Shown: positions 18,621-60,343, counted from the first letter of the stretch. The stretch is 64,000 bases of DNA from a virus (IMGVR_UViG_3300020576_004755:96001-160000), one strand, 5' to 3'. Notes: generated from the letters alone by a model not told the origin. Made by a program: numbers and translations.

Positions 18621-19010
18621 TCAAAAAGATTCTGCCATACGGTTCCAAATTCCTCGATCTTCTGGTCCAGCGGCGTCATGACGTAGATGAAAGCAAAGTT
18701 CAGTAGTCTGCTCATTCAAAAAAGGGAAAGAGGGAATTGAAACAATTTGCGTAGAAAAGTAGTCTCCTGCTCCAAAAGGCTCTTCACATACTCTCTTCAA
18801 ACGAAGCAAATTGTCAAGACGCTTAATCATTTGAGCTAGTTCCGTGTGTCCATAATTCCGACCGGGGTTAGCAATCTCTTGACATAGAGAAGAGATTCCC
18901 GCTACGTTTTGCATAAGAATCTCATGCAATTGAGGATCCGGCTTCTTTGTCACAAGAGTTACCTTGGTATGATCGACAAGGTTGTGACAGTGAGTAATGC
19001 GAATTGACAT
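18621..19010 (-). CDS. MTIR-tag family orphan
   Basis: starts MSIRITH. Confidence 0.7.
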   Translation of the reverse strand: MSIRITHCHNLVDHTKVTLVTKKPDPQLHEILMQNVAGISSLCQEIANPGRNYGHTELAQMIKRLDNLLRLKRVCEEPFGAGDYFSTQIVSIPSFPFLNEQTTELCFHLRHDAAGPEDRGIWNRMAESF

Positions 19011-19029
19011 TTTTCTCCCTTCTCTTTTT

Positions 19030-19410
19030 CTAGTCGCAAACCGTTAGCTTTAGGTTCCGTTCTACAATTTCCCTTCGATACCATTCCCAAAAGAATGGAC
19101 CAATGTTAGGAAACTCTGACATTGATACGTTATTGAAATTTCGAGACATGGTTTGAAATACATAGCCCTTCTTGTTTTTCTGGTATACGTATGGAGAAAC
19201 TGCAACCACAAAGCGTCCTGAGTTCCTTATGAAGAGTGTGGGAGGACTTCTAGGCACTCCTATTCCATTCCAAGAACCAAGGGAAATTACAGGAATTCCG
19301 TTGAAAGCATGTACCAAACAAAGAAGAGCAGTACCACCCTCATTCTTTGTCTTGTTTGTTAGATTTGCTCCCTTTGGAACTTTCCAGTCAACTGTTGAGC
19401 GAATGGTCAT
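19030..19410 (-). CDS. MTIR-tag family orphan
   Basis: starts MTIRSTV. Confidence 0.7.
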   Translation of the reverse strand: MTIRSTVDWKVPKGANLTNKTKNEGGTALLCLVHAFNGIPVISLGSWNGIGVPRSPPTLFIRNSGRFVVAVSPYVYQKNKKGYVFQTMSRNFNNVSMSEFPNIGPFFWEWYRREIVERNLKLTVCD

Positions 19411-19413
19411 TTC

Positions 19414-19737
19414 TCAATCCATCTTCCATATAGGCATTTGTTTGTCCTTATTCTTTTTCTCAGGATGGACTTGATTCCAAATCGAATTGATAAAACCAAC
19501 CTCTTTCCAGAAGACACTGGCAAGACTTGGATTTCTAATCATGTTATTGTACGTAAAGGTTTCACACTTGGAGAGAAGAGTTTTCCCTGTCAAATCCTTG
19601 TGTGTTGAATACAGAAGAACACGAATGTAGTATTTCGTGTATTCCCAAACGCTGCCATGATAGAAATCTCCGTTGCTAACGCGGAGCATCTTCAATTCCT
19701 TGGTGTATTTTACGTTTAGACTCTGGCGAATGGTCAT
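19414..19737 (-). CDS. MTIR-tag family orphan
   Basis: starts MTIRQSL. Confidence 0.7.
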   Translation of the reverse strand: MTIRQSLNVKYTKELKMLRVSNGDFYHGSVWEYTKYYIRVLLYSTHKDLTGKTLLSKCETFTYNNMIRNPSLASVFWKEVGFINSIWNQVHPEKKNKDKQMPIWKMD

Positions 19738-19742
19738 TATGA

Positions 19743-20045
19743 TTACTTGCCCAACAAGTCCGTGTACTCATCCCATACACAATTAGGAATTCGATCTATT
19801 GTAGCCAGATGACTAGAATCGGTAGAATGGATCAATTTACGGACGTCGTAAAGGACCAGTATTTCTTTTCCGTTGTCATCGGCGTCAGGTACATACCTGT
19901 GAAGGGTTGGATGTGCAGGCATCACTGTCTTCATTCGTGTTCGAAGATAGAAAATGTAAGTCTTGCGCTTCTTTTTGTAGAATGATTCATAAGTTGGGTC
20001 ATCCAACTGAAACAGGCTGTTCTTTGTATTTGTTCGAATCGCCAT
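19743..20045 (-). CDS. MTIR-tag family orphan
   Basis: internal ATG gives MAIRTNT. Confidence 0.65.
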   Translation of the reverse strand: MAIRTNTKNSLFQLDDPTYESFYKKKRKTYIFYLRTRMKTVMPAHPTLHRYVPDADDNGKEILVLYDVRKLIHSTDSSHLATIDRIPNCVWDEYTDLLGK

Positions 20046-20056
20046 CGACAGAAATC

Positions 20057-20323
20057 TCAACTCTGGATATAAAAGTTTTGAAGAGTTGCCATCAACTTGT
20101 CAAGTTCGCCTCTGGTTGAAGCAATACGCTTTTCTGATGACAACATGCCAATGACAACCTGATAAAATCCTTCATCATTATCTTCTTCAAAAAACGAAGT
20201 GACAAGATGAACAGAACCTACGTTGCCAGCAAAAACTGCTGGATCCAATCCATCTTGTACGTACGCATGAGTAAGCGTATTTGTCAAATTTGGATTTAAG
20301 GCATACTTTGCGCGGAGTGACAT
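20057..20323 (-). CDS. MTIR-tag family orphan (variant)
   Basis: starts MSLRAKY. Confidence 0.6.
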   Translation of the reverse strand: MSLRAKYALNPNLTNTLTHAYVQDGLDPAVFAGNVGSVHLVTSFFEEDNDEGFYQVVIGMLSSEKRIASTRGELDKLMATLQNFYIQS

Positions 20324-20331
20324 TTGTGTCC

Positions 20332-28821: not shown

Positions 28822-29199
28822 TTAGTGCGGAACCTCTTTAACTACTGGACAAAAGTGACTCTCTGAGTCTGCTAGCTCGTTTAGAAAGACTTTGACAAAG
28901 GCTCGGACAGGCATGGGAAGTGAGGTTGTTGTGACTGCTGGAGCAAAATGATAAGATACAGTGTTCTGAAAAGTCCAGTAATGGTTGATCCAACCTGAAC
29001 CCTCTTCTCCCTTATAGAGAAAGTTGCACGGTCCCGTGATTGCCTTGTCGGAGATTTCAATAAATCGTTTGGTTTTTGGATTTGTCATATTATTTCGAGA
29101 AATAGAACCAAGGAAGCCGATAAAAGATGCAGAGTTAATCTTGAAAAAGATTAATGGCATTGGTCCAAGAGTCTCTGTGTTTGTTCTACGGATTGTCAT
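28822..29199 (-). CDS. MTIR-tag family orphan
   Basis: starts MTIRRTN. Confidence 0.7.
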   Translation of the reverse strand: MTIRRTNTETLGPMPLIFFKINSASFIGFLGSISRNNMTNPKTKRFIEISDKAITGPCNFLYKGEEGSGWINHYWTFQNTVSYHFAPAVTTTSLPMPVRAFVKVFLNELADSESHFCPVVKEVPH

Positions 29200-30007: not shown

Positions 30008-30250
30008 CTACTTCTCCTTGTTTCTTAGAAGAGAGCCGCAAATCGCGTTTAGCTTCTGCAAATGCTCAATTTCTTGTAACAATGCATCTACATTGGTGAC
30101 GTTCGCGTCGTCTTTGAAATTTGCACACGCTTTCATCCAAGCAAGTGCAGCCTCATAATCATTTGGATTCTCATCCAAATTCTTGCGGGTGATTTTTACT
30201 TGATCAACCGCTGCACGGCATTGATCGATAATTGGTTTGGTGATTGTCAA
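30008..30250 (-). CDS. hypothetical protein
   Basis: ORF in operon. Confidence 0.55.
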   Translation of the reverse strand: MTITKPIIDQCRAAVDQVKITRKNLDENPNDYEAALAWMKACANFKDDANVTNVDALLQEIEHLQKLNAICGSLLRNKEK

Positions 30251-30539
30251 ATTCTATATCACGCAAGGTAGAGTCAACAGATTTAATTGTGTCATAGACT
30301 TGCCGACGAATAGTCTTTGGAAGGTATGGGACTTCGTGATAGGTTAGTTCTTTAAATCTTCCAAGGCATGACAGGCTGGCTGTTGAATAATCTGCTGGAA
30401 GTTGAAAGCTGCACTGTCGAACATAACCAAGGTAATACCAATCGCCATAAGAATCAAAATCATGTATAAAGATGGCTACGTAGATGTTGTCCACAGTCTC
30501 TTGAACATAATCATGACGGTGTAGTGCTCTTATGGTCAT
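30204..30539 (-). CDS. MTIR-tag family orphan
   Basis: starts MTIRALH. Confidence 0.7.
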   Translation of the reverse strand: MTIRALHRHDYVQETVDNIYVAIFIHDFDSYGDWYYLGYVRQCSFQLPADYSTASLSCLGRFKELTYHEVPYLPKTIRRQVYDTIKSVDSTLRDIEFDNHQTNYRSMPCSG

Positions 30540-30757
30540 TACAATTCACCCCTCCAAATCTTCTTGATTGCATTATATTGCATTGGCAATGCTCTCATTG
30601 GACCAACCATGTAATTCATGGTGAAGTTCATCATGTAATATTTAGGTAGGGGATGACGAGAGGATTCATGGACAGGGATAACATCTTCTTTGTCCTGAAG
30701 AAGAGTATAGATTTCAAAGCCTTCAACAACATGCGAATATGTTTTTCTGATTGTCAT
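30539..30757 (-). CDS. MTIR-tag family orphan
   Basis: starts MTIRKTY, ATGA overlap. Confidence 0.7.
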   Translation of the reverse strand: MTIRKTYSHVVEGFEIYTLLQDKEDVIPVHESSRHPLPKYYMMNFTMNYMVGPMRALPMQYNAIKKIWRGEL

Positions 30758-31002
30758 TTCCAATCTCCCAAATCTTTCACCAAGATCAACTTATGTTCAT
30801 TGCGAATCTCTTCGCAAAACTTATGGGCACTTTTCCTAATTGCTGTTGTGAAAACTGTGCCTTGCCATGGATAACAGATTTGATAAGTGTAAGCATAGCA
30901 GGCAAGACCAAAAGGTACATTCTTGTCGTTGTCAGCTACCAACAAATAGTTCAAGCTACCAAAATGAGGATATGGTTTCTCTGGTCTTCTTCGAATTGTC
31001 AT
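30754..31002 (-). CDS. MTIR-tag family orphan
   Basis: starts MTIRRRP. Confidence 0.7.
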   Translation of the reverse strand: MTIRRRPEKPYPHFGSLNYLLVADNDKNVPFGLACYAYTYQICYPWQGTVFTTAIRKSAHKFCEEIRNEHKLILVKDLGDWK

Positions 31003-31554: not shown

Positions 31555-31557
31555 TAC

Positions 31558-31833: not shown

Positions 31834-31836
31834 TTT

Positions 31837-32040: not shown

Positions 32041-32042
32041 TT

Positions 32043-32548: not shown

Positions 32549-32555
32549 TTGTTTA

Positions 32556-33242: not shown

Positions 33243-33243
33243 T

Positions 33244-34213: not shown

Positions 34214-34223
34214 AGTGTTTTTA

Positions 34224-42893: not shown

Positions 42894-42902
42894 AATAGCT
42901 TA

Positions 42903-42932: not shown

Positions 42933-42943
42933 CATTAACAACA

Positions 42944-46914: not shown

Positions 46915-46916
46915 AA

Positions 46917-47171: not shown

Positions 47172-47186
47172 TGTTGTTGCTCTGCC

Positions 47187-47684: not shown

Positions 47685-47986
47685 GGTGATCGTTTCTTGA
47701 TTGGAATGTTGTACTGCTCGCACAATGGGTACAAAACAGGCGAAATCAAGAAGAAGAACAATTCAGGAGAGATTCGTATGTCTGAGAATTCCGTCAAATT
47801 ATACTTTCTTGAACATGGATTGCCCATTGTACCATCAGAAACAATGTGTGCTGTTGTTGACACGGTTTCTTTGGTATACATTCGACTGGTATGGATATAT
47901 GAGTGATACCCGAACGTTAGACGAGGTTTGTTCTTCATCGTTCTTGCGACACGACGATTGGATAGAAATGTGGTTCGAATGGTCAT
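47681..47986 (-). CDS. MTIR-tag family orphan (tandem paralog of 47997-48311)
   Basis: MTIRTTF; GYHS and LCEQYNI shared. Confidence 0.7.
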   Translation of the reverse strand: MTIRTTFLSNRRVARTMKNKPRLTFGYHSYIHTSRMYTKETVSTTAHIVSDGTMGNPCSRKYNLTEFSDIRISPELFFFLISPVLYPLCEQYNIPIKKRSP

Positions 47987-47996
47987 GAAGCTTTTC

Positions 47997-48311
47997 TCAG
48001 TAGTCTAACCTGATGTTGTATTGCTCACAGAGCTTTTGAAGCTCTGGCTTCAAGAAACTGTTAAACATAACGTGTCCAACTCGATATTGGAATAGTTCAT
48101 TGTCAATAGATCTTGTCAACTGCTTATTGGTTCTTTTTATCGGAATAATATAGCAAGTTTTGCTAGAGTGGTTGTTCTTGGTGTGAAGTTCTTCCTGCAA
48201 GAGAGAGTGATATCCATACGTGATAGCAAAAAATCCATTCTTAGACCAGTGCTCATTGTACAAAAGTCTTGCTGTTCTTCTTGAAGAGACAAATGTGGTT
48301 CTAATTGGCAC
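47997..48311 (-). CDS. MTIR-tag family orphan (GTG start)
   Basis: GTG CCA ATT AGA = (M)PIRTTF. Confidence 0.7.
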   Translation of the reverse strand: MPIRTTFVSSRRTARLLYNEHWSKNGFFAITYGYHSLLQEELHTKNNHSSKTCYIIPIKRTNKQLTRSIDNELFQYRVGHVMFNSFLKPELQKLCEQYNIRLDY

Positions 48312-48735
48312 GCTTTTTATTATCCCTGTTGTAGTCATCAATGAACTGCTTTGTTTGCCGTTTAAGGAATTTTGAGTCTACAAAAGTGTCATAATGGATC
48401 AGACTGGCTAAGTTTATCTTGCGTCGATATCCGCTGTAGTATAGAAAATAAGAATCTGTATATTGAATAGGCATTCTTGACGTTGGTGCCCATTCAAGAT
48501 CGTTAACCATGACATGAGCAATTCTATCAGACAGCCATGAATCAAACAGATCTCTCTGTTTTCGATTGAGGAACTTGTCGTATTCGGTGTTCTTGAACCA
48601 TAGCTTTTTCAAGAATGGAAACACGTAGGCATACGAGAACCAGAATGCATAGTAATGAACGAACGATCTGGTTCCAAGACCGATCTTGTTCATGTTGATT
48701 AAGCTTTGCGCTGTATTGTTTGATCGAATGGTCAT
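48301..48735 (-). CDS. MTIR-tag family orphan
   Basis: MTIRSNN. Confidence 0.7.
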   Translation of the reverse strand: MTIRSNNTAQSLINMNKIGLGTRSFVHYYAFWFSYAYVFPFLKKLWFKNTEYDKFLNRKQRDLFDSWLSDRIAHVMVNDLEWAPTSRMPIQYTDSYFLYYSGYRRKINLASLIHYDTFVDSKFLKRQTKQFIDDYNRDNKKRAN

Positions 48736-48745
48736 ATGATTGTAC

Positions 48746-49156
48746 TCATACTGGCATATTCTGTGTATCAATGTCAACTTCTTCCATCATTTTCATAACG
48801 GCATCAACAGCAAATCTTCTCTTGTGCTTGTTTGCATAGATGAGCAAGAGTGCTTCTGTTGTTTCTCTGTAGTCGGCAGCAAAGCTATAAGATGGTCCAT
48901 GGTTATTGATACCCTTTGTCCAAAGGTCTTCCATGAAGAAACGCCGAGGATCATCTGTTGCTTCCATTATGAATCCTGTTACCACGTCAATATAGGCATT
49001 TGGAGGCATACGTCGCATTACACGAAACTCATGACCAACTCTTTTGGTCGGGATATTCCAACGAAATAATGCGCGAGCACGAAACGTAGTGCTGCCATAC
49101 AAGAAGACGTTATGACGAGCGTCGGATATCTTGTACTTGAAAGTCGTTCTCATCAT
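48746..49156 (-). CDS. MTIR-tag family orphan (divergent)
   Basis: starts MMRTTFK. Confidence 0.65.
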   Translation of the reverse strand: MMRTTFKYKISDARHNVFLYGSTTFRARALFRWNIPTKRVGHEFRVMRRMPPNAYIDVVTGFIMEATDDPRRFFMEDLWTKGINNHGPSYSFAADYRETTEALLLIYANKHKRRFAVDAVMKMMEEVDIDTQNMPV

Positions 49157-49581
49157 AATGGCTTGATTCTTGGATTGCCATTCTCGTCAACAAGACTTTC
49201 TTTCGACAGAGCATGTTCTAGATTGTAATCATAGAGAACCTTGGCAATTTGGACCAAAGCAGTTGCCGAAGTTGACTTGAGCATTGTTGCAGGGGCGTGG
49301 GTTCTCGACATAACGTAACTGTATTCTGACGTCTTCGATGACCAGTTAGCTCCTACAACTCCTGCAATTGTCATGCTATGCTGACCGCCTCCAATAAGCT
49401 TTACATCTTCAAGACTCAGAAGCATATCGGCATGAACAAATGCCAGAGCATTAATGTGTGCCAGTTCTTTCTTACCAGGGAAAACGGGAACCTCTTTAAA
49501 CTTGGCATTCATCGCATCAATGATATTTTCCGGTCCCATGAAACGACTTATTATTACTTTGATTGTATGACGCATTGGCAT
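49153..49581 (-). CDS. MTIR-tag family orphan (variant)
   Basis: starts MPMRHTI. Confidence 0.65.
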   Translation of the reverse strand: MPMRHTIKVIISRFMGPENIIDAMNAKFKEVPVFPGKKELAHINALAFVHADMLLSLEDVKLIGGGQHSMTIAGVVGANWSSKTSEYSYVMSRTHAPATMLKSTSATALVQIAKVLYDYNLEHALSKESLVDENGNPRIKPL

Positions 49582-49589
49582 AAAAAATA

Positions 49590-50060
49590 TTACTCTTCTT
49601 CTTCTGTTTCTGGATATATGGTACCGTAGGTTAAAACATTATCAATGGTTCTCTTGTACCTCTTGCCGAGAATATCATTCTTTAGATTGCAGAACATAGG
49701 AACGAACACTTCTCGTGACCAGACTCTTGAGGACCACAAACAACCCTTTGCACTTGGCTCCAAGAGAACCTCTGAACGATGAATTCTGAGTTCGTTGTTT
49801 TTGTGGTTTATCTTGTTCCAGTCCGTGAACGTTACATGCACCAAGGGAACGTTTATCTTGTGAGCGTACTTGTATTGGTTGGGGTTATCAGGAGAATAGG
49901 GTTTGCTGCCACGACGTTCGCTTCTAAGGCGCTTCAACTCCTCAGACGACCGCTTGTACTGTCCAAAGGTTACAGAGCCTTCTAGGGGATATAGATAAGA
50001 CCCTTTCTTTGTTGATGATGATGATGACGGCTTCTCATGGAGTAGAATGCGAATGGTCAT
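49590..50060 (-). CDS. MTIR-tag family orphan
   Basis: MTIRILL, ATGA overlap. Confidence 0.7.
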   Translation of the reverse strand: MTIRILLHEKPSSSSSTKKGSYLYPLEGSVTFGQYKRSSEELKRLRSERRGSKPYSPDNPNQYKYAHKINVPLVHVTFTDWNKINHKNNELRIHRSEVLLEPSAKGCLWSSRVWSREVFVPMFCNLKNDILGKRYKRTIDNVLTYGTIYPETEEEE

Positions 50061-50404
50061 TTTCCAAAGATATCCTTTTTCTTTCGCTCTTGAAAGTTTG
50101 AAAGAATGGAGCAGATCTCTTTGTGCATGACAATTTCGTTGCTGCACATTCCAAATCCGTTTGATTGGCTAGTAACAGTCATTTCAAAGAACTCTTTGTT
50201 TTTGCCATCTCTTCCCGTTATTGATATTGACAAGGGCATTGAGATACGTGCAACGCCCAGGAGCGAATATGTGTTATCGTTCTCAGATTCATATGACCAA
50301 AAAACAACATGCCTTACTGAATAAGGATCGGGAGTATGCAGATCCCATGAAGGGAGCTTAACAGTCTTCATCAAGGGTTTTTCTATGGTTGTTCTGATTG
50401 GCAT
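50057..50404 (-). CDS. MTIR-tag family orphan
   Basis: MPIRTTI. Confidence 0.7.
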   Translation of the reverse strand: MPIRTTIEKPLMKTVKLPSWDLHTPDPYSVRHVVFWSYESENDNTYSLLGVARISMPLSISITGRDGKNKEFFEMTVTSQSNGFGMCSNEIVMHKEICSILSNFQERKKKDIFGK

Positions 50405-50405
50405 G

Positions 50406-50699
50406 TTATCGCTTTGGATTGAACAATCCGACGAAAGGATAGTCTGTGTTTGGATAGAAAATATGTTGGTTTCTGCTGGCAACAGACTTCTTGAACGAAT
50501 CAACCTGATTGCGCTGACGCTCTCGCATATTATGATATGCTGCAAGCTTACTATAGCCGATCGAAAATCTCACGGAATTGAAGTCGTCCCAATAGAACCT
50601 TTTCTCTCTCCCTGCTTGTTGGCGAAGAGTTAGTGAACAAAGGAATATGTTCACAATAGAAGAGTGTAATTTGGTTATGCTTTCTGTTCTGATTGTCAT
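50406..50699 (-). CDS. MTIR-tag family orphan
   Basis: MTIRTES. Confidence 0.7.
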   Translation of the reverse strand: MTIRTESITKLHSSIVNIFLCSLTLRQQAGREKRFYWDDFNSVRFSIGYSKLAAYHNMRERQRNQVDSFKKSVASRNQHIFYPNTDYPFVGLFNPKR

Positions 50700-50755
50700 A
50701 GACCTACATCCTACCATTTCAATGGATCCAAATAAAGATATTGATCTATTATTCG

Positions 50756-51331
50756 CTATACAATCTCATTTCTCATCCTACGAAGTATTTTGTCCATTCT
50801 TTGATGCATATCGATTCTACGAGCAAACTCTTCTTGGGACTTTGCTATGTCAATTAGCTCTTCTGTTTCTCTGGCAGAAAGAACAAACCTGCTTTTGATT
50901 ACTATGGTTCTTGTATCAGGGTCAACAGTTATAGCGTTTCTGCTTCTGGTCTTTAGTTTTTGCCCACCCAACTTCCTTATCTTTTTGGCAGTCATGTAAG
51001 TTGTTGCAATCCCTGTACGAGATACTATCGTTTTTGCCAATATATTGCCTGTGTGTCCAAAAGTGTAGTAAGTCTTGTGGAAATCAAGACTTTGGATTGG
51101 ATCGGATAGATAGTCCAAAACGTTCGAAACAACAGATGCGCCAGGCTTCATACAATCAAACATTGCCTTCCAGCGCAAGACCATTGTTGTTGCTTCCTTT
51201 TTTTTGCCAACCCTTGTGTTGATATAGAGACTCTTCGTCATGTTGAAATTTCCCCATGGACGATTGAAATATCTCATATGCTTCAAGCCAAGATACATCT
51301 TGCCTGTCTTGTGAGTTGTTCGAATTGTCAT
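50756..51331 (-). CDS. MTIR-tag family orphan
   Basis: MTIRTTH, ATGA overlap. Confidence 0.7.
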   Translation of the reverse strand: MTIRTTHKTGKMYLGLKHMRYFNRPWGNFNMTKSLYINTRVGKKKEATTMVLRWKAMFDCMKPGASVVSNVLDYLSDPIQSLDFHKTYYTFGHTGNILAKTIVSRTGIATTYMTAKKIRKLGGQKLKTRSRNAITVDPDTRTIVIKSRFVLSARETEELIDIAKSQEEFARRIDMHQRMDKILRRMRNEIV

Positions 51332-51642
51332 GGCAATCTTCCTTCTCTCTCTATTGTGTTGATGAAACTCAAAAGAGTTACATTTCTGTTTTTGAATGAA
51401 TGCGAGTGAAAGTAAATGGAAGCCAAGTTGTCTTGGTACAGCATTCCAATGTGATACCAATACTTCCCTGATTTATAGGGTCTTAGCATTGCTTGTTTGT
51501 TGGTGGTGAAGTCCCAACTTGTTGGAGATCCAAACATGGCAAGCGTTACGTGAACATAAGGGTTTGAAAGACTCTTGGAGATTCTCTTGCGTTCAGCAGA
51601 AGGAGACTTGAATGGCTTGTATTGTCCTGTACGTATTGTCAT
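51328..51642 (-). CDS. MTIR-tag family orphan
   Basis: starts MTIRTGQ. Confidence 0.7.
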   Translation of the reverse strand: MTIRTGQYKPFKSPSAERKRISKSLSNPYVHVTLAMFGSPTSWDFTTNKQAMLRPYKSGKYWYHIGMLYQDNLASIYFHSHSFKNRNVTLLSFINTIEREGRLP

Positions 51643-51914
51643 AGCTGTTGCTCAGCGATATTGTCCACAGGTTTCATTCCAAGGATTGCACGAGCTTCGT
51701 TTCTATGTGCTGTACTCTTCCAAGGGCTTAGATCAAGAGCACCGTAGTTTTGATCAACGTGTATGACTCTGAGAACAGAACTAACATACATATTGCCATC
51801 ATAAATACGGAGAAACCTAGACGATTCGTCTGCGTCGATAATGCAAATGCATAGATTGTCAAAATCCCATGGCATGTATCCTCCCGGTGAGTTTATCTGT
51901 CTTCTGATTGCCAT
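51639..51914 (-). CDS. MTIR-tag family orphan
   Basis: starts MAIRRQI. Confidence 0.7.
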   Translation of the reverse strand: MAIRRQINSPGGYMPWDFDNLCICIIDADESSRFLRIYDGNMYVSSVLRVIHVDQNYGALDLSPWKSTAHRNEARAILGMKPVDNIAEQQL

Positions 51915-51934
51915 TGTTTGTTGTTTTCTTTTTT

Positions 51935-52429
51935 CTACTTTTTATGTGCGCTGCGCGGAACGACAATCTGATTGTAATAGTCGTACGTTATGGAAAATGG
52001 AATTTGGCAGCAGTTCTCTTTCAAGAAATCGAGTACATATTTGAACAACCTTGAATCCGAGTCAATTCTGTCAATGCCAATCAAGCTATACAGTAGTGCA
52101 TCATCTGACTGATGAAAACAATAAGCTGCCTCTATAAACGAGCCATATCGACTAAGACACCTTAGATGAGTTCTATATCTTAGAGAATGAGAATTGGGTT
52201 CTGATACCATAAAATGCACAAAGTTACCAGAAGCGTGCTGATACTTTGCTAAGTCTTGCTTCTCCAGCTTTGTTAGCTCTGGAGTGAACCACATTGCTGT
52301 CCTCCACAGATATTTGACTTTGCTAATGAAGGCATGAATCGGCGAGTTCACCTTGCTCTTAGGAATGCCAAGGTTGTCAATCACAATCAGATGATTGTTG
52401 TCTTTATGGTTTGATACTCGTATTGTCAT
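51935..52429 (-). CDS. MTIR-tag family orphan
   Basis: starts MTIRVSN. Confidence 0.7.
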   Translation of the reverse strand: MTIRVSNHKDNNHLIVIDNLGIPKSKVNSPIHAFISKVKYLWRTAMWFTPELTKLEKQDLAKYQHASGNFVHFMVSEPNSHSLRYRTHLRCLSRYGSFIEAAYCFHQSDDALLYSLIGIDRIDSDSRLFKYVLDFLKENCCQIPFSITYDYYNQIVVPRSAHKK

Positions 52430-52695
52430 TTGTCCAAATCCCTTCTTGCTTGTTTCAAGATTGGATCAATAACTCTGAGCTTACAATCTAGACCAAAGAA
52501 ATCAACAGGAACTCTAGACATTCTGAATTTTAGACCATAGGCGTGTCTGATGTTCGTTGTTACTTCGTAATGTATTGAAAAGTTATCGTTTATAGGACCG
52601 ATGCGCAATCGTCTTATGACATAAGACAGACTCTCCGTACGAAACAATCTTACAGACTGCTCTGTGTTGATCCAGTCATTATGACGGATGGTCAT
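52426..52695 (-). CDS. MTIR-tag family orphan
   Basis: starts MTIRHND. Confidence 0.7.
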   Translation of the reverse strand: MTIRHNDWINTEQSVRLFRTESLSYVIRRLRIGPINDNFSIHYEVTTNIRHAYGLKFRMSRVPVDFFGLDCKLRVIDPILKQARRDLDK

Positions 52696-53096
52696 AGCTT
52701 CTCACCACACTCCATCTTTCTCCACAGCTTGATTGCATGTTGATTGGCAATGGAAATGTTGTATTCGGTTACAGTCTCTTGCGAGAGCATCCAAGACTTG
52801 TTGACGCGATCATACGAACCAAGTTGAAGTCTGTAGATAACCCAAGCCGGATCTGTGTTATAGCTCATCCACGCATGAGGAATGTTTGTAGGATTGGGAC
52901 TAACATTATAGTTGTGAACCTGTGGAGGAGGAGAATGACGAGTTTTATTCTCACGACAACAGACAATCTTCAACTTGTTCATTTCTTGCATCATGGTGTT
53001 CATCGAGGAGCCCCATTTTGTTGGAGATGCTGCCTTTGAGAACTTCATGTACGAAAAGGGATATTGAATAGCAGGGATTCTTTGTCTAATGGTCAT
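52692..53096 (-). CDS. MTIR-tag family orphan
   Basis: MTIRQRI, ATGA overlap. Confidence 0.7.
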   Translation of the reverse strand: MTIRQRIPAIQYPFSYMKFSKAASPTKWGSSMNTMMQEMNKLKIVCCRENKTRHSPPPQVHNYNVSPNPTNIPHAWMSYNTDPAWVIYRLQLGSYDRVNKSWMLSQETVTEYNISIANQHAIKLWRKMECGEKL

Positions 53097-53407
53097 AGTT
53101 CCCACCATCTTGGTCGTTCTCCAAGCCCATATACAATATAGCTAACGTGCTCCTCGATGTAATATGGCACAGAATGTGCGTAAGCCGCAGTCATGAATCT
53201 TGGAAGCACAGCGGGATCATTTTTTGTGGACGAAAACTTGTTGAGGATTGCCTCACGATAGGAAATGAATGTGTTCTTTATTGGCAGCTTGGTAAGTGCA
53301 TCTATTAGCCATGGCTGTGACGATTCCAAAAAGACTGCCATACGCATCTTTGATGCGTTGTATATTCTTTGTTGCTGTTGCTGTTGCTGTTGTCTTCGAA
53401 TGGTCAT
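53093..53407 (-). CDS. MTIR-tag family orphan with polyQ
   Basis: MTIRR followed by Q9. Confidence 0.7.
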   Translation of the reverse strand: MTIRRQQQQQQQQRIYNASKMRMAVFLESSQPWLIDALTKLPIKNTFISYREAILNKFSSTKNDPAVLPRFMTAAYAHSVPYYIEEHVSYIVYGLGERPRWWEL

Positions 53408-53423
53408 AGGGTTTGTAACTCCC

Positions 53424-53453
53424 ATTGTATAGAGAAAGATTCAAACAATAAAC
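53424..53453 (-). promoter_or_regulatory. GTTTATT-class promoter
   Basis: GTTTATT-N17-TACAAT. Confidence 0.65.
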
Positions 53454-53464
53454 ATAACCAAACA

Positions 53465-53830
53465 TTATGCTTGTGGTACGTCCATCATCATTCTCGTATA
53501 TTCGTGCGCGAATTCATCGAAGATTCGTTGAAGCCTCTTGTTGTCCTTGTGAAATCCTTTCAATGAGAGATCGAAAGAGATAACCGAAAGAAAATGAGAA
53601 ACGAACTCTTTCGATCCTGAATAGGAGCCAGCAATTCTTGTTGCACTTTTTTTTGTTTTGCTTCCCGAAACGTTGACAAAAACATTGCCAATAACAATAA
53701 GCTTGTTTGTTCTAAGCCAATCAATCTGAGTGCCCACCGAGCAATGGATCGCGTTAAGATAGCCATGATAGGGGAAATAGGTATAGCTATCAAGAGAGGC
53801 ATTCTTTTTTATGCTTGAACGTATTGTCAT
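53465..53830 (-). CDS. MTIR-tag family orphan
   Basis: MTIRSSI. Confidence 0.7.
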   Translation of the reverse strand: MTIRSSIKKNASLDSYTYFPYHGYLNAIHCSVGTQIDWLRTNKLIVIGNVFVNVSGSKTKKSATRIAGSYSGSKEFVSHFLSVISFDLSLKGFHKDNKRLQRIFDEFAHEYTRMMMDVPQA

Positions 53831-53840
53831 AATGACTTTT

Positions 53841-54221
53841 TCACCAATGAATCGTTCCCGTTTCAATGATCTTGTCGAAGTCTGTTCGATATTCATGAAT
53901 AGAACCCATTCTGAGACAGAGAACAGAAAGAATCTTTTGTGCGCTCTTAACCCTAGCTTTTCTAAAATGCCAAGATTGAATATCAAGATAGAGCATTCTG
54001 TGTCTCATTTCGGTATGTGTTGTGCCTGTGAATATGTTGGTGTAAATCTCTTGTGTGTAGACTGTCATGATCTTGACAAAGCTTTTGCATTTGAATTGTG
54101 ATCGGGTCTTATCAGAAATAGGAGCATACATAGACTTTCTCCAAGACTCATAAGTTTCCTTCAAGATCTTGTCGGTAAGCTCCATCTTCTTCTTTGATAT
54201 AAGCTGTACTCGGATTGTCAT
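53841..54221 (-). CDS. MTIR-tag family orphan
   Basis: MTIRVQL, ATGA overlap. Confidence 0.7.
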   Translation of the reverse strand: MTIRVQLISKKKMELTDKILKETYESWRKSMYAPISDKTRSQFKCKSFVKIMTVYTQEIYTNIFTGTTHTEMRHRMLYLDIQSWHFRKARVKSAQKILSVLCLRMGSIHEYRTDFDKIIETGTIHW

Positions 54222-54487
54222 TCGCGTATTCCTCTTTCGAAGTCTTTCCACAAAAAAGAGACTTTATCATTTGAGTCTACCGACTTCTTCCGCGAGAAGA
54301 AGTATTCGGAGCTTTTGTTGTAAGGAAACCATGTGATTAAATCTATTGTGACCAAATGATCAGGAAGACCAATATGAGAACTACGCAGCGTGACAATCTT
54401 GGGAGATCCAATTGGGTTATATGGATTGCCATGTACATGCTTTGTTACTTGGTCCAAGTCAGAAACGTAACTTGCTCTGATTGTCAT
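54218..54487 (-). CDS. MTIR-tag family orphan
   Basis: starts MTIRASY. Confidence 0.7.
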   Translation of the reverse strand: MTIRASYVSDLDQVTKHVHGNPYNPIGSPKIVTLRSSHIGLPDHLVTIDLITWFPYNKSSEYFFSRKKSVDSNDKVSFLWKDFERGIRE

Positions 54488-54738
54488 AACTCACCTTTGC
54501 TTATCCGATGCCATATTTCTATTTCTCTTAACAAAGCAATAGTATTTGCTAGGCAAGGACCGAAAGAAAGATTGGAAACGGCATTCTTATGACGTGGAAC
54601 GTCCACGGCATCAAACATGACATATGCACTTGTTGTGTTTCTTGATTCATAATAGATAACGATTACAAATCTTGTTGTACGATCCCATCGCATACGCTCA
54701 TAATCAAATGGCGTTAGATGCCTGACTCTAATACTCAT
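54484..54738 (-). CDS. MTIR-tag family orphan
   Basis: MSIRVRH, 11-nt overlap. Confidence 0.7.
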   Translation of the reverse strand: MSIRVRHLTPFDYERMRWDRTTRFVIVIYYESRNTTSAYVMFDAVDVPRHKNAVSNLSFGPCLANTIALLREIEIWHRISKGEL

Positions 54739-55282
54739 CGATAAGTTCTCCTTCTCGTATTCTACGAATATCTGGACAACTCGTGTTTTGTATACGTCTT
54801 TCTTTTGGTACCACGACATTATTGTAGCGATCAGGACGATGATAGAATGTATAGGCAAAAAGTGGTGGACGGCTTCTGTGATCCTCCAATTCTATTTCAT
54901 TTGGTGAATGACAAAAACACATTTCAAAACCATATTCTTTCACGATACCAAGAAAGAGTTCATGAACTGCCAACGTTACTTTTCTGGTAAGTTCGACAGA
55001 GTTTTGAACCAGTTTGTAGTGAACAACTATATTGTTTCGCAGAGAATTTGCGTCTGTCTTGGCATAATGCAAAATTGCATCTTCGCCATACTTTTCCTTT
55101 TTTACAGATCTAAGGCTAGGAGAGTTGTAAAACGCAAGTTCATAAGGATATGTGTCTGTATAATGAGCGGAAGCGTGAAGGGCATAATGATACGCCTGAC
55201 CAGCATAAAATCCAAACTCTAAATGAACATAGGCTGGCGCTGTTATGTCTTTGACATAAGATTTTGAAGCTCTAATGGTCAT
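54728..55282 (-). CDS. MTIR-tag family orphan
   Basis: starts MTIRASK. Confidence 0.7.
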   Translation of the reverse strand: MTIRASKSYVKDITAPAYVHLEFGFYAGQAYHYALHASAHYTDTYPYELAFYNSPSLRSVKKEKYGEDAILHYAKTDANSLRNNIVVHYKLVQNSVELTRKVTLAVHELFLGIVKEYGFEMCFCHSPNEIELEDHRSRPPLFAYTFYHRPDRYNNVVVPKERRIQNTSCPDIRRIREGELIDEY

Positions 55283-55610
55283 CTAGGTGTCTCCAAGACT
55301 TGTTGTAAATCTCTTCATAATGGTAATGATGAAACTTCTTTGGAAGCGGTGGAGTTGGAATGTTGTAGCCCTTGGGGAAATAGTTTCTCATGCGAAGATG
55401 AATAGCATCTTGCCAGGGATAATCCTTAGAATCTTCATGCCACTCTCTTGTGAACTTAATACCAATCAAAAAGAATGCTGCTGTTTCGTATAGTCCCTTG
55501 ATTGGACCCCAATGAGCCATTGCTTGCCAGTAATGACAATGACAGACTCGTGTCACAATATCAAGGCTGTTGCCATCAAGGCTGTATAGGAGTTGGGTTC
55601 GAATGGTCAT
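55272..55610 (-). CDS. MTIR-tag family orphan
   Basis: starts MTIRTQL. Confidence 0.7.
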   Translation of the reverse strand: MTIRTQLLYSLDGNSLDIVTRVCHCHYWQAMAHWGPIKGLYETAAFFLIGIKFTREWHEDSKDYPWQDAIHLRMRNYFPKGYNIPTPPLPKKFHHYHYEEIYNKSWRHLDDH

Positions 55611-55618
55611 GAAAGGGT

Positions 55619-56041
55619 TCAGCTTCCCATTAGGTCTATCAGCTTCATTGCTGACTGATCGTACAAGACTTCAACGTTACGTCTGTTGAGTTCCTCCAAC
55701 AATCCTGTTGTTTGATGCGGAGACTCCAGCAACGAATCCAATATATGCATTTCTGCTTTCTTAGAGAACTCAAAGGATTTTGGTTTCATTAGCCTAAGAC
55801 CAACCAACATGTACTCCACGAATTCTCTCAAGGTCTTAATCTTTTCTAAAGAAGAGAACGTATATCTCACATGATATACGTCAGCATACACAAGACCCAT
55901 TAACTCAACAGCGTGAGGCGTATAGACAACAAGCTTAGGCATTGTGTTGACACGCAAGCCTTCTGTAGTCCTCGTAGGATGAGGCTTGCTTCTCTGTGTA
56001 TAGACAGGAAGATCTGATTTGAATGTTGTTCTAATTGCCAT
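55619..56041 (-). CDS. MTIR-tag family orphan (paralog of 33504-33950)
   Basis: starts MAIRTTFKS. Confidence 0.7.
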   Translation of the reverse strand: MAIRTTFKSDLPVYTQRSKPHPTRTTEGLRVNTMPKLVVYTPHAVELMGLVYADVYHVRYTFSSLEKIKTLREFVEYMLVGLRLMKPKSFEFSKKAEMHILDSLLESPHQTTGLLEELNRRNVEVLYDQSAMKLIDLMGS

Positions 56042-56333
56042 ACTGGTAGTATTCCGTTCTCAACTTACGAAATTGGCTTCTTTGTGCATCAGATATCCGA
56101 TTATCATCTACACCCCGACGCCAAAAGAAAATACGTTCAGATGGATTTGGGGCTTCTGGTCTATCGTATACGCAGATACCATATCGATAGTCTAAAACCC
56201 ACGAAGAGGGGTTCCATATTATAAAAGGCATTCCAAGACGAGGAGGATAGGGACGACATTCAACAATAAGAGACTTAGCCTTTTTTATTGTCTCTGTTGG
56301 AATCTCGGATTTGAATGTTGTTCTAATGGTCAT
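56031..56333 (-). CDS. MTIR-tag family orphan
   Basis: starts MTIRTTFKS. Confidence 0.7.
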   Translation of the reverse strand: MTIRTTFKSEIPTETIKKAKSLIVECRPYPPRLGMPFIIWNPSSWVLDYRYGICVYDRPEAPNPSERIFFWRRGVDDNRISDAQRSQFRKLRTEYYQYGN

Positions 56334-56604
56334 TTGCTTCTATCTGTATCCATCTGTCTGTGAAAATGCGTCCACCTGAATGAACAGAAGCATCTGGTTC
56401 ATAGTCTGGTGAGTTCCAAGAAGGTGCGTACTGCCAACTAGGATAAAACTTGAACGTCGTCTTGTAGACCCAAGGAAATTCAATTGGGATGGTCCATGTA
56501 TACGCAAACCATCTGTTTTTTCCAGCAGGCTTGCTATATTTGTCCAGAAGCGCAACAAGTCTCATCTTTGAGTTGTCAGACTTGAATGATGGTCTAATTG
56601 CCAT
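56323..56604 (-). CDS. MTIR-tag family orphan
   Basis: starts MAIRPSFKS. Confidence 0.7.
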   Translation of the reverse strand: MAIRPSFKSDNSKMRLVALLDKYSKPAGKNRWFAYTWTIPIEFPWVYKTTFKFYPSWQYAPSWNSPDYEPDASVHSGGRIFTDRWIQIEANDH

Positions 56605-56860
56605 ACTTACCTGCCTCTACCTCATGCCATTTCTTTATTTTTTCTTCATCTATTTCGATCCGTTGAGCAAGTCTTTTCTTGTGGCTAAAGTAGAACCTTT
56701 CGTCGAAGACTTCTGGATATCCCTTGAACAGTAAGTCTTGATGCATAAAGCGTTCGTCAGAAATCATGGAACCGCCAATCGTCGCTCGGTAGAGAAATGC
56801 TTCTTTTGTTACAATACGAACTCTGTTGTTTGGACTCTTGAATGTAATTCGAATGGACAT
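56594..56860 (-). CDS. MTIR-tag family orphan
   Basis: MSIRITFKS. Confidence 0.7.
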   Translation of the reverse strand: MSIRITFKSPNNRVRIVTKEAFLYRATIGGSMISDERFMHQDLLFKGYPEVFDERFYFSHKKRLAQRIEIDEEKIKKWHEVEAGKYGN

Positions 56861-56864
56861 ACTC

Positions 56865-57122
56865 TTACTTCCTTCTGCCATTCTCTATGTCATGCCAGAT
56901 ATCTTCAAAAGCACGATAGTCTTCACTAGCACAATTTGCATAGAATGATCCAGCTTTTCTAAAGAACCATCCAGTCTTCATTGGATAGTCGCTATTCATA
57001 TACAAGAAATTATAGTGAATTGCATCTGGTTTATTTGGATTCATTGCCAGAGTGCGAAACTTCACTTGTGAAAGAATACGAACTCGCGTTTCTGTGTGCT
57101 TATATGAAGTTCGAATTGTCAT
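56865..57122 (-). CDS. MTIR-tag family orphan
   Basis: starts MTIRTSYK. Confidence 0.7.
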   Translation of the reverse strand: MTIRTSYKHTETRVRILSQVKFRTLAMNPNKPDAIHYNFLYMNSDYPMKTGWFFRKAGSFYANCASEDYRAFEDIWHDIENGRRK

Positions 57123-57127
57123 GTGCT

Positions 57128-57469
57128 TTATTTTTCGTTTTTTCTGTCTCTCAGCAAGGGATATCCAATCTTCCGACAGATTTCGTAGTAGACAGGCAAT
57201 ATCTCTATCATGGCTTTTTCCGGTACGTTGTCAAACATGGCACTAAACGTTTCGATTGGATACCATTCAATCTTCGACAAGCCATTGTCATTTATCCACT
57301 GTGATATCCGTGAGCTGCATGTAAACAGAGTGCAAAATCTTCGTGTTTTATGAACAGAAAGATGAAACACTTTGCTCTGAACATCATAGAACGCAAACTG
57401 GTTGATCTGCTTTAGAGCTACTTGAAGTCTTGGAAGCTGCTCTTCCGAATATTGGCTTCTAATGGTCAT
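57128..57469 (-). CDS. MTIR-tag family orphan
   Basis: starts MTIRSQY. Confidence 0.7.
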   Translation of the reverse strand: MTIRSQYSEEQLPRLQVALKQINQFAFYDVQSKVFHLSVHKTRRFCTLFTCSSRISQWINDNGLSKIEWYPIETFSAMFDNVPEKAMIEILPVYYEICRKIGYPLLRDRKNEK

Positions 57470-57851
57470 TGTATTCTCGCAAGATTTCTTCTATGAATTG
57501 ATGAGCCTTGCGAGTCGAGTCGTTTTTTGGATCTTTCTTCCAAGGGATTGTTACATACTGCTTGGTCCAAACGTTGAACTTGCTTATATCATCCCAATTG
57601 CGAGATTTACCATTAACTTGATAGTAGACCGTAACTTTTCCTTCTTGGAATTTTGAAACAGGAAACTCTAAAGGATGCTCACAGTTTGGTATAACCACCC
57701 CTAAAGTAAAGTAATAGGACGTTCGTTCGCTACTTCTCATGCTCAGTAGACTACTACAGGCTCTTTGAGTAAAGATATAAACCCTCGTCTTCTTTTGTTT
57801 CCAAAAGAGATTAGAAAGGGGTTTTGATAATGTTGTGGCTCTGATGGTCAT
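57459..57851 (-). CDS. MTIR-tag family orphan
   Basis: starts MTIRATT. Confidence 0.7.
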   Translation of the reverse strand: MTIRATTLSKPLSNLFWKQKKTRVYIFTQRACSSLLSMRSSERTSYYFTLGVVIPNCEHPLEFPVSKFQEGKVTVYYQVNGKSRNWDDISKFNVWTKQYVTIPWKKDPKNDSTRKAHQFIEEILREYNDH

Positions 57852-58180
57852 CGCACTAAAATTGCAACCTTCCTGTGATTCTTATGGAACCATCCCTGCT
57901 TGTTTGGCGGAAAAGACTTTGCATATGAATAGGAGATGTTGTTAATCTCTCTGGCAAGATGGGATTGGCAAGTGTCTCCAAGCCAACAAAAACTTGGCTT
58001 CATTTCATGAAATCTCATATAAATGCTAACGTTGTCGCTACGAAGAAGATTGGTCATTATCAGAACTCCTGGATTATGCTCTGGTTCACGGAACATGGCA
58101 ACATAGATCCATTCGTAATCTCCTGCTACTCCTACCCTGTGATATCTCGCTTTTATCTCTATTGTGGCTCGTATGGTCAT
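57848..58180 (-). CDS. MTIR-tag family orphan
   Basis: starts MTIRATI. Confidence 0.7.
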   Translation of the reverse strand: MTIRATIEIKARYHRVGVAGDYEWIYVAMFREPEHNPGVLIMTNLLRSDNVSIYMRFHEMKPSFCWLGDTCQSHLAREINNISYSYAKSFPPNKQGWFHKNHRKVAILVR

Positions 58181-58518
58181 GAAATTAAAGAGCCTTCCAT
58201 GATAGAAGCAAGTGCTCTGAACTGCCCTGGTCCATACAAGGTATATATGTCAGACATATGCGTACCTTGCATGTAGGCATTCCAGGGACATTCGTAATCT
58301 CCTACATCTCTTGTAAGTTGGTTGATTATGGCAGGATTTCTTGCTGCCGGTGTAGTTGCCAAAGTACCATTGATGATCTTCAAGGCTGCGTCAGAGAAGA
58401 AATAAGCATGAAAGACGTACAGCACAGGATTGACAAAAGCAAAGGAAGGAGAAGAAGAAGAAGAAGAAGGCAGATGACTTCTTGAATACTTTCTTGTTAG
58501 TGAAGCTCGAATGGTCAT
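58177..58518 (-). CDS. MTIR-tag family orphan
   Basis: starts MTIRASL; polyS. Confidence 0.7.
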   Translation of the reverse strand: MTIRASLTRKYSRSHLPSSSSSSPSFAFVNPVLYVFHAYFFSDAALKIINGTLATTPAARNPAIINQLTRDVGDYECPWNAYMQGTHMSDIYTLYGPGQFRALASIMEGSLIS

Positions 58519-58838
58519 AGGTGTCTTTTTCTCATCGTGTTGCTTTCTTTGTCATTTCTTGGATAGGGAATGTCATACACAATGTTGTCGTAGATTTCTC
58601 TAAGCCGACAACTTGGATTATGAACAAGAAATCTGTAAGAAAAAGTGCCGTCATCATCATCATCATCATCATCTACCTCGTCAATAATGCGAAGCAAATA
58701 ACCTTTTGCGTTGCTATGAGAAACGATCTTGAACTTGTAGGTATTACGATATCCAGAGCTCTCGATCAAGGAGGCAGGAAGCTCTATCGATCCATAGCAA
58801 GAGTTTACGTTTCTTAGGTCTGTTGTTCGAATGGTCAT
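58515..58838 (-). CDS. MTIR-tag family orphan
   Basis: MTIRTTD; polyD. Confidence 0.7.
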   Translation of the reverse strand: MTIRTTDLRNVNSCYGSIELPASLIESSGYRNTYKFKIVSHSNAKGYLLRIIDEVDDDDDDDDGTFSYRFLVHNPSCRLREIYDNIVYDIPYPRNDKESNTMRKRHL

Positions 58839-58846
58839 AAAATAGT

Positions 58847-59383
58847 CTAACTTCCCTTCTCTCTTTCTCCTCTTCCGATTGAATCCCATATGTCTCGTTC
58901 TTCTGACATGTTCTGATTGCTGCGTTTGAAGTTCACAGAGAACAGAGTTTTGTTATTTGTTGTTCCGTTATCGGAAGAAATGCTTGTGGTACGAGAGATT
59001 GTTGCCGTGATTCTTCCTACTTCATAACTGCCAACACCGAACGGACTGTTAAAATCTTTCTCAATAGCTCTGTAATAATTCAAGTCCTCAAGGGTGTAAG
59101 TGCGGACCTTTCCATCAACAGCTTCTTCATAAGCTATTTTGTCAAGAATTCGATCAATGTTTGACTGGATCCTATCTGTCCAGTAAGCATGGGAGTCTGG
59201 ATCTGGATACTTCTTTACATGAGTGAACGTATTGAGGAGCAATAGTCCCGATCCATCTATCATTGCTTCTCTTTTTATTCCTTTTCTTTTGCAAATGACA
59301 TCTCCAAATAAAAGAGAAGAAGAAGAAAGACTTCTTGCAATGATCTCGATGTTGATTGTTGGTATGGAGATACGGATGGTCAT
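58847..59383 (-). CDS. MTIR-tag family orphan
   Basis: starts MTIRISI. Confidence 0.7.
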   Translation of the reverse strand: MTIRISIPTINIEIIARSLSSSSLLFGDVICKRKGIKREAMIDGSGLLLLNTFTHVKKYPDPDSHAYWTDRIQSNIDRILDKIAYEEAVDGKVRTYTLEDLNYYRAIEKDFNSPFGVGSYEVGRITATISRTTSISSDNGTTNNKTLFSVNFKRSNQNMSEERDIWDSIGRGEREKGS

Positions 59384-59817
59384 TGTTTCTGTTCTTCCTC
59401 TTTGTCAAACAGAAGATGAAACTGTTCAGAAGAAGTGGTCTGACAGATTGACGATGAATCAAAGCCTTTGTCAACGCTCAGGAACTTCAATACAGGCTTG
59501 TATCCTGAATAGAATGCGCCATCGCGACACAATACAAGTTGCCTTGTTGTATAGGTTCCCATTCCGGTAGGAGAACGTTCAATGGCATCAATGACACGTT
59601 GGTTTTGCATGATAGATTTTTCGTAAAACAGTCTGTCTTTTTTATGCTTTGCTGTGTACATAAGCCTGTTTAGATTGTCATTCTGTTGTTTCAAGTTCTT
59701 TGCCATTGCAGCTTGGTCAAAGTTCATTACATGCTTGGTAACGATCTTGATCCCTTTGTCTCTAAGGAAGAGGAGGGAGGAGAATGATAGATCTTTTTGT
59801 TGTCTACGGATGGTCAT
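59380..59817 (-). CDS. MTIR-tag family orphan
   Basis: starts MTIRRQQ. Confidence 0.7.
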   Translation of the reverse strand: MTIRRQQKDLSFSSLLFLRDKGIKIVTKHVMNFDQAAMAKNLKQQNDNLNRLMYTAKHKKDRLFYEKSIMQNQRVIDAIERSPTGMGTYTTRQLVLCRDGAFYSGYKPVLKFLSVDKGFDSSSICQTTSSEQFHLLFDKEEEQKQ

Positions 59818-59837
59818 ATAGAATGGAATATAACCCC

Positions 59838-59867
59838 ATTATAGGTTATTGTGCGCCGACAATAAAC
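59838..59867 (-). promoter_or_regulatory. GTTTATT-class promoter
   Basis: GTTTATT-N17-TATAAT. Confidence 0.7.
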
Positions 59868-59941
59868 AAAAGAAGGGATTTTCTCAAATGTGCTCTTGAA
59901 AGCAAGAGCAATTGCCGCTAAAAATAGGAAGATTGTTGTTA

Positions 59942-60343
59942 TTATCTATTGCCGACACTAAAACTGCCAAGAGGAAGATCTAGCAGATGAGGACAGTGAT
60001 CTAAGATAGCTTGCCTGGTAATGGCATGAAGCTTTCTATTGATCTCGTCACATTCATCATTCCATTTTTTGTTAAAAGTGGCATATACATGCTCTTGAGA
60101 AGAAGAACAGTTAAGCCGAAAGAGAGTTCCTTTAACGGTATCCATGGAATACTCTGATGAGCTATTAGAGGAAGAAGAAGAACTAGCATCATGAGAATGG
60201 AAGTTCAGTCTAACGTATGTATAAGGAAACCCAAAGGCTCTTGAATGGTTGGCTTGGATAGCTTGTTTGTATTGCCAGAGAAAGCTATCCGATAGCTTTA
60301 CTGTTTCTAATAAGACTGTTGTTCTTGTTCTTCTGATTGTCAT
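59942..60343 (-). CDS. MTIR-tag family orphan (first gene of the tract)
   Basis: starts MTIRRTR. Confidence 0.7.
   Translation of the reverse strand: MTIRRTRTTVLLETVKLSDSFLWQYKQAIQANHSRAFGFPYTYVRLNFHSHDASSSSSSNSSSEYSMDTVKGTLFRLNCSSSQEHVYATFNKKWNDECDEINRKLHAITRQAILDHCPHLLDLPLGSFSVGNR

Follow-up and report, generated by a model that had tools for sequence, protein, structure and literature searches.

Short terminal peptides shared by otherwise unrelated proteins are a principle already known from the capsid-targeting sequences (CTS) of phage T4, from degrons and from cargo-loading peptides. Those that load cargo into encapsulins and bacterial microcompartments exceed the tag described here in length, are mostly C-terminal or helical, and are found on a handful of cargos. 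The repeats in the hyperplastic regions of T4-type phages are regulatory cassettes between genes; to our knowledge, the genes of such regions share no common peptide. The internal proteins of T-even phages are highly diverse defence proteins with a conserved CTS as their only common feature (PMC3012670); all internal head proteins of T4 enter the core by the CTS, which T4-type prohead proteases remove by cleaving after Glu (PMC5694885). Among degrons, the N-motif-1 of ClpX is known from GapA (TIKV), Dps (STAKL), AtpD (ATGKI) and lambda-O (TNTAKI) (PMC9775585), and the lambda-O degron is engaged in the ClpX channel (PMC12723719). Here, a viral stretch of 64,000 nucleotides (IMGVR_UViG_3300020576_004755:96001-160000, the window) was analysed, in which about 75 small orphan genes start with one peptide, M-[T/A/S/P/G]-I-R (the tag). 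The window comprises bases 96001-160000 of one linear IMG/VR viral contig of 182,849 bp, about 48% complete according to CheckV; counts described as genome-wide refer to this contig, and positions are those of the window unless marked “genome”.

Seventy-two ATG-started open reading frames (ORFs) of at least 60 amino acids (aa) started with M[TASPG][IVLM]R between 15501 and 60343, 71 of them on the minus and one on the plus strand. Three further tagged ORFs, all on the minus strand, had a non-ATG start: two GTG (V-PIR, 47997-48311; V-TIR, 47187-47684) and one TTG (L-AIR, 30999-31310). The tagged set thus amounted to 75 of approximately 111 minus-strand ORFs between 16.7 and 60.4 kb, compared with 2 loose matches among the 188 ORFs of the rest of the 183-kb contig (0.5 expected; binomial P ~4e-148), none of which had a strict MTIR start. 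The sequence-only reading had described about 75 such genes in four runs plus one plus-strand copy and had proposed a genome-wide count as a check; the runs were found where it had placed them, and the tag proved not to be commonplace in the contig. The recognisable enzymes were untagged, as it had also observed. Those identified here were ThyX, a D12 methyltransferase, RNA ligase, DNA ligase, ClpP, HD and M23 proteins, peptide deformylase (PDF) and the amidoligases.

The largest run (46657..60343, minus strand) contained some 40 closely spaced ORFs (84-191 aa) with an M-[T/A/S/P]-I-R start, and the two GTG-started ORFs belong to it. The second (36593..43795, minus) held about 17 genes of 73-283 aa, and the third (30204..34707, minus) 20 genes of 67-148 aa, including the TTG-started one. 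A solitary tagged gene (28822..29199, minus; MTIRRTNTET, 125 aa) was 66% identical to a tagged orthologue in a related phage (L069, described below), and five genes starting with MSIR, MTIR, MTIR, MAIR and MSLR formed the last run (18621..20323, minus). The sole plus-strand member encoded MTIRQTYITRFE (15501..15776, 91 aa). The membership given by the sequence-only reading was sound for the set as a whole and needed qualification at three places: 45593-45907 (MSMR) is a doubtful member, and 48746-49156 (MMRTTFKYK, in the largest run) and 38733-39446 (MTIQ, in the second) look like variant or decayed tags. Residue 2 was T, A, S, P or G throughout the tagged genes of the window, and the Arg of the tag was invariant save for rare Lys. 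The longer consensus, M-T-I-R-[T/R/A/S]-[T/S]-[Y/H/F/I]-[K]-[T/S], was lost by residue 9-10. One tagged protein (53093-53407) opened with MTIRR and then a run of eight Gln. Outside the window and far from the arrays, near a tRNA cluster, a lone ORF starting with MSIRATTSFQ (125 aa; genome 7499-7876, plus strand) may be a stray member of the set.

The tag was encoded by 35 distinct 12-mers. Its first 12 bases varied at synonymous positions, with CGN and AGR codons both present for Arg, and the four combinations of Thr ACC or ACA with Arg CGA or AGA occurred 11, 11, 9 and 9 times. Codons for the tag Ile followed gene-body usage, and Thr-ACC and Arg-CGA were modestly above it: a secondary nucleotide preference exists, and it cannot account for the tag pattern. 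No conserved nucleotide sequence independent of codon position (a repeat, an integron-like cassette site or a regulatory box) was found over the tag; the synonymous variation and the number of 12-mers speak against all three. Genes with GTG or TTG starts still carried T-, P- or A-I-R. Since so many 12-mers encode the tag and its Thr and Arg codons are chosen independently, selection acts on the peptide itself; the earlier claim that the constraint lies on the peptide and not on a DNA repeat is borne out by this codon mixing, by the GTG and TTG starts and by the M-I-R variants described below. We consider it very probable that the tag is a functional peptide read by some common factor.

The tagged genes were organised as coupled operons, and 38 of about 75 junctions placed the upstream stop codon within the tag (26 as an ATGA overlap of -4 and 12 as an overlap of -11 nt). 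The first four codons, or nascent M-T-I-R, might be required for efficient (re)initiation or early elongation in long coupled operons, or license translation on phage-modified ribosomes; the enrichment of Thr-ACC and Arg-CGA and an A-rich region past the tag fit such an expression signal. However, synonymous codons mix freely, A, S, P or G at residue 2 disrupts the ATGA overlap, the CGN codons used for Arg (41 of 72) give no stop, and the highly expressed structural genes are untagged. Shine-Dalgarno use, low across the contig, was not different between tagged and untagged genes (35% vs. 22%), nor was folding around the start (-4.5 vs. -4.8 kcal/mol). An expression signal is therefore improbable, and the translation licence suggested by the sequence-only reading found no support in these comparisons.

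Apart from the tag, the proteins had little in common. After removal of the first 9-10 residues, all-vs-all comparison (BLASTP and phmmer) detected clear relatedness in two pairs only (47997/47681, E 2e-8; 33504/55619, E 2e-6), with a third borderline pair and no single family, in agreement with the earlier statement that the bodies are unrelated save for a few pairs. None of 72 tagged proteins matched Pfam, PHROGs or NCBIfam. They were small (median 107 aa), aromatic-rich and mostly basic (isoelectric point above 8 in 73%), and only 2 of 75 were membrane-like. An AlphaFold2 model of one of them was uninformative (pLDDT 50) and too poor to judge N-terminal disorder. That the tagged ORFs are real genes is indicated by the changes in a 92%-identical metagenomic variant, L013 (two codons inserted or deleted in frame, with differences at 13 synonymous and 17 non-synonymous codons), together with orthologues of tagged genes in remoter phages (26-66% identity). 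At L013:294-875 the source gene caller had chosen an internal Met (163 aa), whereas the conserved MTIR start gives 193 aa; automatic annotation may thus hide tags in public protein sets.

With ClpP, encoded within the array, as guide gene, tag-bearing relatives were found in three further metagenomic phage lineages: L014/L073 (GC content 34%; ClpP 67-68% identical to that of the window by BLASTP/global alignment and 72% over the segment aligned by tblastn), L069/L075 (a 127-kb contig, GC 39%, ClpP 76%) and L071 (GC 33%, ClpP 72%, the same ClpP sequence being present on contigs of up to 282 kb). All three carried arrays of M-[T/S/A/G]-I-R genes around ClpP, with up to 36 tagged genes per 30 kb. 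Of the genes that the source pipelines had called independently in the relatives, 22 of 41 and 20 of 37 began at the tag; including near-start and M-I-R forms, the tagged genes were 36 of 63 and 24 of 37. Gene order was kept as well: tags, ClpP, (cREC), a 243-aa gene, tags, metallophosphatase, SLOG and PDF, with an untagged island (the SF0329 family and neighbours) at the same place. Five genes of the second run (36593-36898, 36882-37217, 37214-37585, 37637-38095 and 38202-38717) had tagged orthologues in the relatives. The search of related phages proposed earlier was thus rewarded, with arrays in three further lineages besides L013, and the tag is a trait of a phage clade.

Beyond this clade the tag was not encountered. 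The genome of Microcystis phage Mel-JY01, scanned whole, contained none, nor did phages with remoter ClpP (44-58% identity). An exhaustive HMMER search with ClpP returned many homologues of 40-54% identity, and both contexts examined were tagless. No closer relatives turned up in IMG/VR when ClpP, the amidoligase, PDF and the 243-aa family served as queries, and a DNA pattern for the extended tag had no match there. A pattern of three spaced tags hit only tandem repeats or chance matches in IMG/VR and 185,579 prokaryote genomes, its sensitivity being low (4 of 53 window starts caught). Word-based protein searches with two tagged proteins retrieved, besides the query, a single relative at 92%. 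Downstream of the 243-aa gene in one relative (L073:2584-6264), about 16 tandem paralogous small genes started with MKNPRVDSSGNK.W or MKKQLSNLEVDMYG, not with MTIR, and form a second sort of small-gene array in which the bodies are related.

Over 13 tagged orthologue pairs, identity was 82% for residues 2-4, 31% for residues 5-9, 36% for residues 10-20 and 50% beyond. A conserved tip on the least conserved part of a protein is the pattern expected of a terminal tag on a loose leader, and this is how we read the alignments. For only six of 36 tagged genes of the L069 phage was a homologue present in the contig of the window (at a median of 41% identity), compared with 14 of 27 untagged neighbours (median 65%); the tagged genes turn over much faster. 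Against this background, it is very improbable that the tag is a functionless relic of one tandemly duplicated ancestor or a microhomology for cassette shuffling. The gradual decay of a consensus that extends to residue 9, the few paralogue pairs that lie side by side, and one L013 gene body that diverges far more than its flanks, starting right past the tag, would fit such an origin. A neutral remnant, though, would not hold 82% identity while the next 16 residues drop to about 33%, nor survive on non-homologous bodies across lineages of GC 33-42%, and 35 12-mers are too variable for a recombination site. The L013 gene concerned (L013:932-1204; window 50406-50699) encodes a protein only 39% identical to its counterpart between flanks of 85-92% identity, with the divergence beginning directly past the 12-nt tag, which indicates localised fast divergence or exchange with a distant relative.

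Several genes started with M-I-R, two of them orthologous to M-T-I-R genes. Methionine aminopeptidase (MetAP) excises Met when T, S, A, G or P follows, and Ile after Met blocks excision. The M-I-R orthologues should thus keep their Met and the M-T-I-R proteins lose it, so that the mature N-terminus is probably x-I-R in both; the distance of I-R from the mature end being the same, recognition at the free N-terminus is indicated. “Address or docking peptide”, the description given in the sequence-only reading, is the most economical one. The part of it that held is a short label on a hypervariable orphan set, conserved over a clade; among the roles that it listed, a timed degron and capsid loading are the candidates still in contention.

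As to the receptor of the tag and the fate of the labelled proteins, we tentatively propose that the tag is a degron similar to the ClpX N-motif-1 and served by the ClpP of the phage; the steps inferred are Met removal, recognition of the free N-terminus and degradation by Clp. M-[T/S/A]-I-R would be a post-translational N-terminal tag, deformylation and Met excision leaving NH2-(T/S/A)-I-R, and in the M-I-R variants Ile would prevent excision and leave NH2-M-I-R. The tag would form the tip of a leader, poorly conserved, positively charged and probably flexible, on some 75 accessory proteins that are small, basic, soluble and fast-evolving. A single common receptor, most likely a Clp-type AAA+ protease, would read it, and the whole library would be short-lived and cleared on schedule. 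The tag resembles the N-motif-1 in its T/S/A start, predicted to be Met-excised, followed by a hydrophobic and then a basic residue: GapA T-I-K and the tag T-I-R differ only in K/R. Lambda-O is likewise a phage protein that uses such a degron, and here a ClpP gene lies in the array.

The ClpP-family serine protease (35742..36533, minus strand; PF00574, E 6e-25) was inside the array in all four lineages, with a predicted intact triad; Ser, His and Asp matched the catalytic residues in an alignment to ClpP in the PDB, and the true start is likely the ATG at 36467. Given that a separate T4-type prohead protease (PF03420) is encoded, this ClpP is not the head protease. PDF (17835..18467, minus; PF01327, E 4e-25) adjoins the array, directly downstream of the last tagged gene, and in L071 a PDF and a SLOG/YspA gene likewise flank it. 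Several points weigh against a Clp degron. The likeness to the N-motif-1 amounts to three residues. In the known motifs a small or polar residue and then a hydrophobic one or Thr come before the basic residue, a hydrophobic one (I, L or V) comes after it, and the distance to the N-terminus is variable, whereas residue 5 of the tagged proteins is mostly T, R, A or S and hydrophobic in about 20 of 75. Known N-motif-1 degrons occur on single proteins and not genome-wide. Since the 44-58% ClpP homologues occur in tagless phages, ClpP is not tag-dependent. No unfoldase, ClpS or MetAP was detected in the contig, which is half a genome, and we know of no precedent for a phage marking 75 of its own proteins for destruction.

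A close described parallel to the arrays is the T4 CTS (IPI, IPII, IPIII and Alt), in which a short N-terminus is likewise the sole common part of diverse, small, basic, fast-evolving proteins. The contig codes for a T4-type portal gp20 (PF07230), a gp21 S77 prohead protease (PF03420) and a gp23 capsid protein (PF07068), so the phage is predicted to build a T4-type prohead; the nearest cultured relative of the portal was that of Mel-JY01 (42% identity). An x-I-R leader could accordingly dock small basic proteins to a T4-type prohead scaffolding core, so that they enter the head together with the DNA and reach the next host by injection, and the size, charge, rarity of membrane-like members and fast turnover of the tagged proteins, as in arms-race proteins, would suit such a cargo. 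Nevertheless, we regard capsid loading, the main rival reading, as slightly less likely than the degron. T4 has few such genes, each with a CTS of about 10 residues cut by gp21 after Glu. The tag has 3-4 residues at the extreme N-terminus, without cleavage motif or sequence similarity to the CTS, and the equivalence of M-I-R suggests a dependence on N-terminal distance. Cleavage sites were not apparent: [LIVM]xE within residues 5-25 was rarer in tagged (12%) than in other proteins (29%), and 43% of the tagged proteins had no Glu there. We know of no precedent for 75 cargo species, the arrays are located among genes for nucleotide metabolism and repair on the strand opposite to the structural module, and Mel-JY01 has a related head yet no tag. 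As for the earlier statement that no described phage is organised in this way, the T4 CTS follows the same principle on few genes, and literature searches found no description of this organisation; those on MTIR, on shared N-termini of early proteins and on phage ClpP gave nothing relevant.

Some other reader of the N-terminus is unlikely on present indications: a modifying enzyme (the flanking amidoligases, an acetyl- or methyltransferase), a localisation or export factor, the 243-aa protein as adaptor, or a two-step N-degron in which the first two residues are trimmed to expose Arg, a secondary destabilising residue in bacteria. In its favour are the fixed distance of I-R from the mature N-terminus and the invariance of Arg, together with two Amidoligase_2 genes that abut the array head, divergent from it (60716..63606, plus strand; PF12224, E 4e-17 and 4e-15). 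So is the untagged 243-aa protein of unassigned function (34704..35435, minus), which adjoins ClpP in each of the four lineages with the tag, was not seen at that place in phages without it, and is 86% identical in the L069 phage, above the 76% of ClpP. On the other side, the analysis connected no enzyme and no receptor with the tag, the amidoligases are linked to it only by their position in the window, and the 243-aa protein lacks a recognisable fold: its model was a helical bundle with a Gln-rich disordered N-terminus (pLDDT 64), with no fold match in the PDB and ESM Atlas neighbours below a useful score.

About as probable as the degron is the suggestion that, in a clade of large T4-like phages, x-I-R is a genome-wide address routing a rapidly renewing library of at least 75 orphan proteins to a dedicated receptor, neither ClpX-type nor a T4-type scaffold core; such a system might include the 243-aa protein or the amidoligases.

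Two further kinds of described system are comparable in part. Encapsulin and microcompartment peptides likewise send unrelated cargo to one shell by a short terminal peptide, but no such shell gene was seen in this phage. The hyperplastic regions of T4-like and other large phages also consist of packed, coupled small orphan ORFs on one strand that vary between close relatives. What is new here is how much of the contig is tagged (about a quarter), how short the tag is, its strict N-terminal register and its clade-wide conservation on a rapidly renewing gene set; no described motif or family matches it.

Small orphan genes account for a large share of every large phage genome and are nearly impossible to study collectively; with a common, minimal, transferable label on about a quarter of a 183-kb contig, all members of the set could be purified, followed or destabilised together. 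Should the tag be a degron, the phage would time the lifetime of its whole accessory proteome by means of a protease that it encodes; should it be a loading signal, the injected arsenal would be an order of magnitude beyond the internal proteins of T4. Either way, a tag of 3-4 residues at a free N-terminus would be a useful tool and a new example of a bacterial N-terminal code, and a dedicated receptor would imply a novel system of protein sorting or protein fate in a bacterial virus. Because the tag is conserved across the clade, the question can be put to a direct test.

Between ClpP and the 243-aa gene lies a receiver-like cREC_REC gene (35345..35677, minus strand; PF20274, E 2e-18), with orthologues in L014/L073 and L069. 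Elsewhere in the contig, two tail-sheath paralogues of about 1000 aa each were encoded at genome 46449-52551, and the large subunit of ribonucleotide reductase was interrupted by an intein with HNH (genome 87715-91605). The 23 tRNAs of the contig (three for Thr, two for Met, none for Arg) did not mirror the tag.

A promoter-like element, GTTTACAT-N13-TGCTATAAT (strong -35, extended -10), was present in at least 11 nearly identical copies in the contig: at 10758 and 14540 (plus) and 21236, 24150 and 25137 (minus) in the window, and at genome 8065, 8846 and 91609 (plus) and 59522, 61840 and 63038 (minus). Two more divergent copies were found besides, one of them at window 25916. This element never preceded a tagged gene, so the tagged genes may form a different temporal class. 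Only weak GTTTATTG-N17-TAtAAt sites were seen in the tag arrays (42932, 53453 and 59867), and scanning the array for sigma-70 promoters and terminators gave no more hits than chance would. The T4 late-promoter box, TATAAATA, occurred only twice in the contig (about 16 expected) and was rejected as a promoter of this phage; given its scarcity, late transcription must rely on another signal. The 372 nt between the first tagged gene and the divergent amidoligases (60344-60715) contained 3-4 copies of AAGCTTATTGG / CTTTTACTGTAAGCTTATTGG and an A/T-rich TTTCC...GGAAA palindrome, and may be an operator/promoter cluster for the array.

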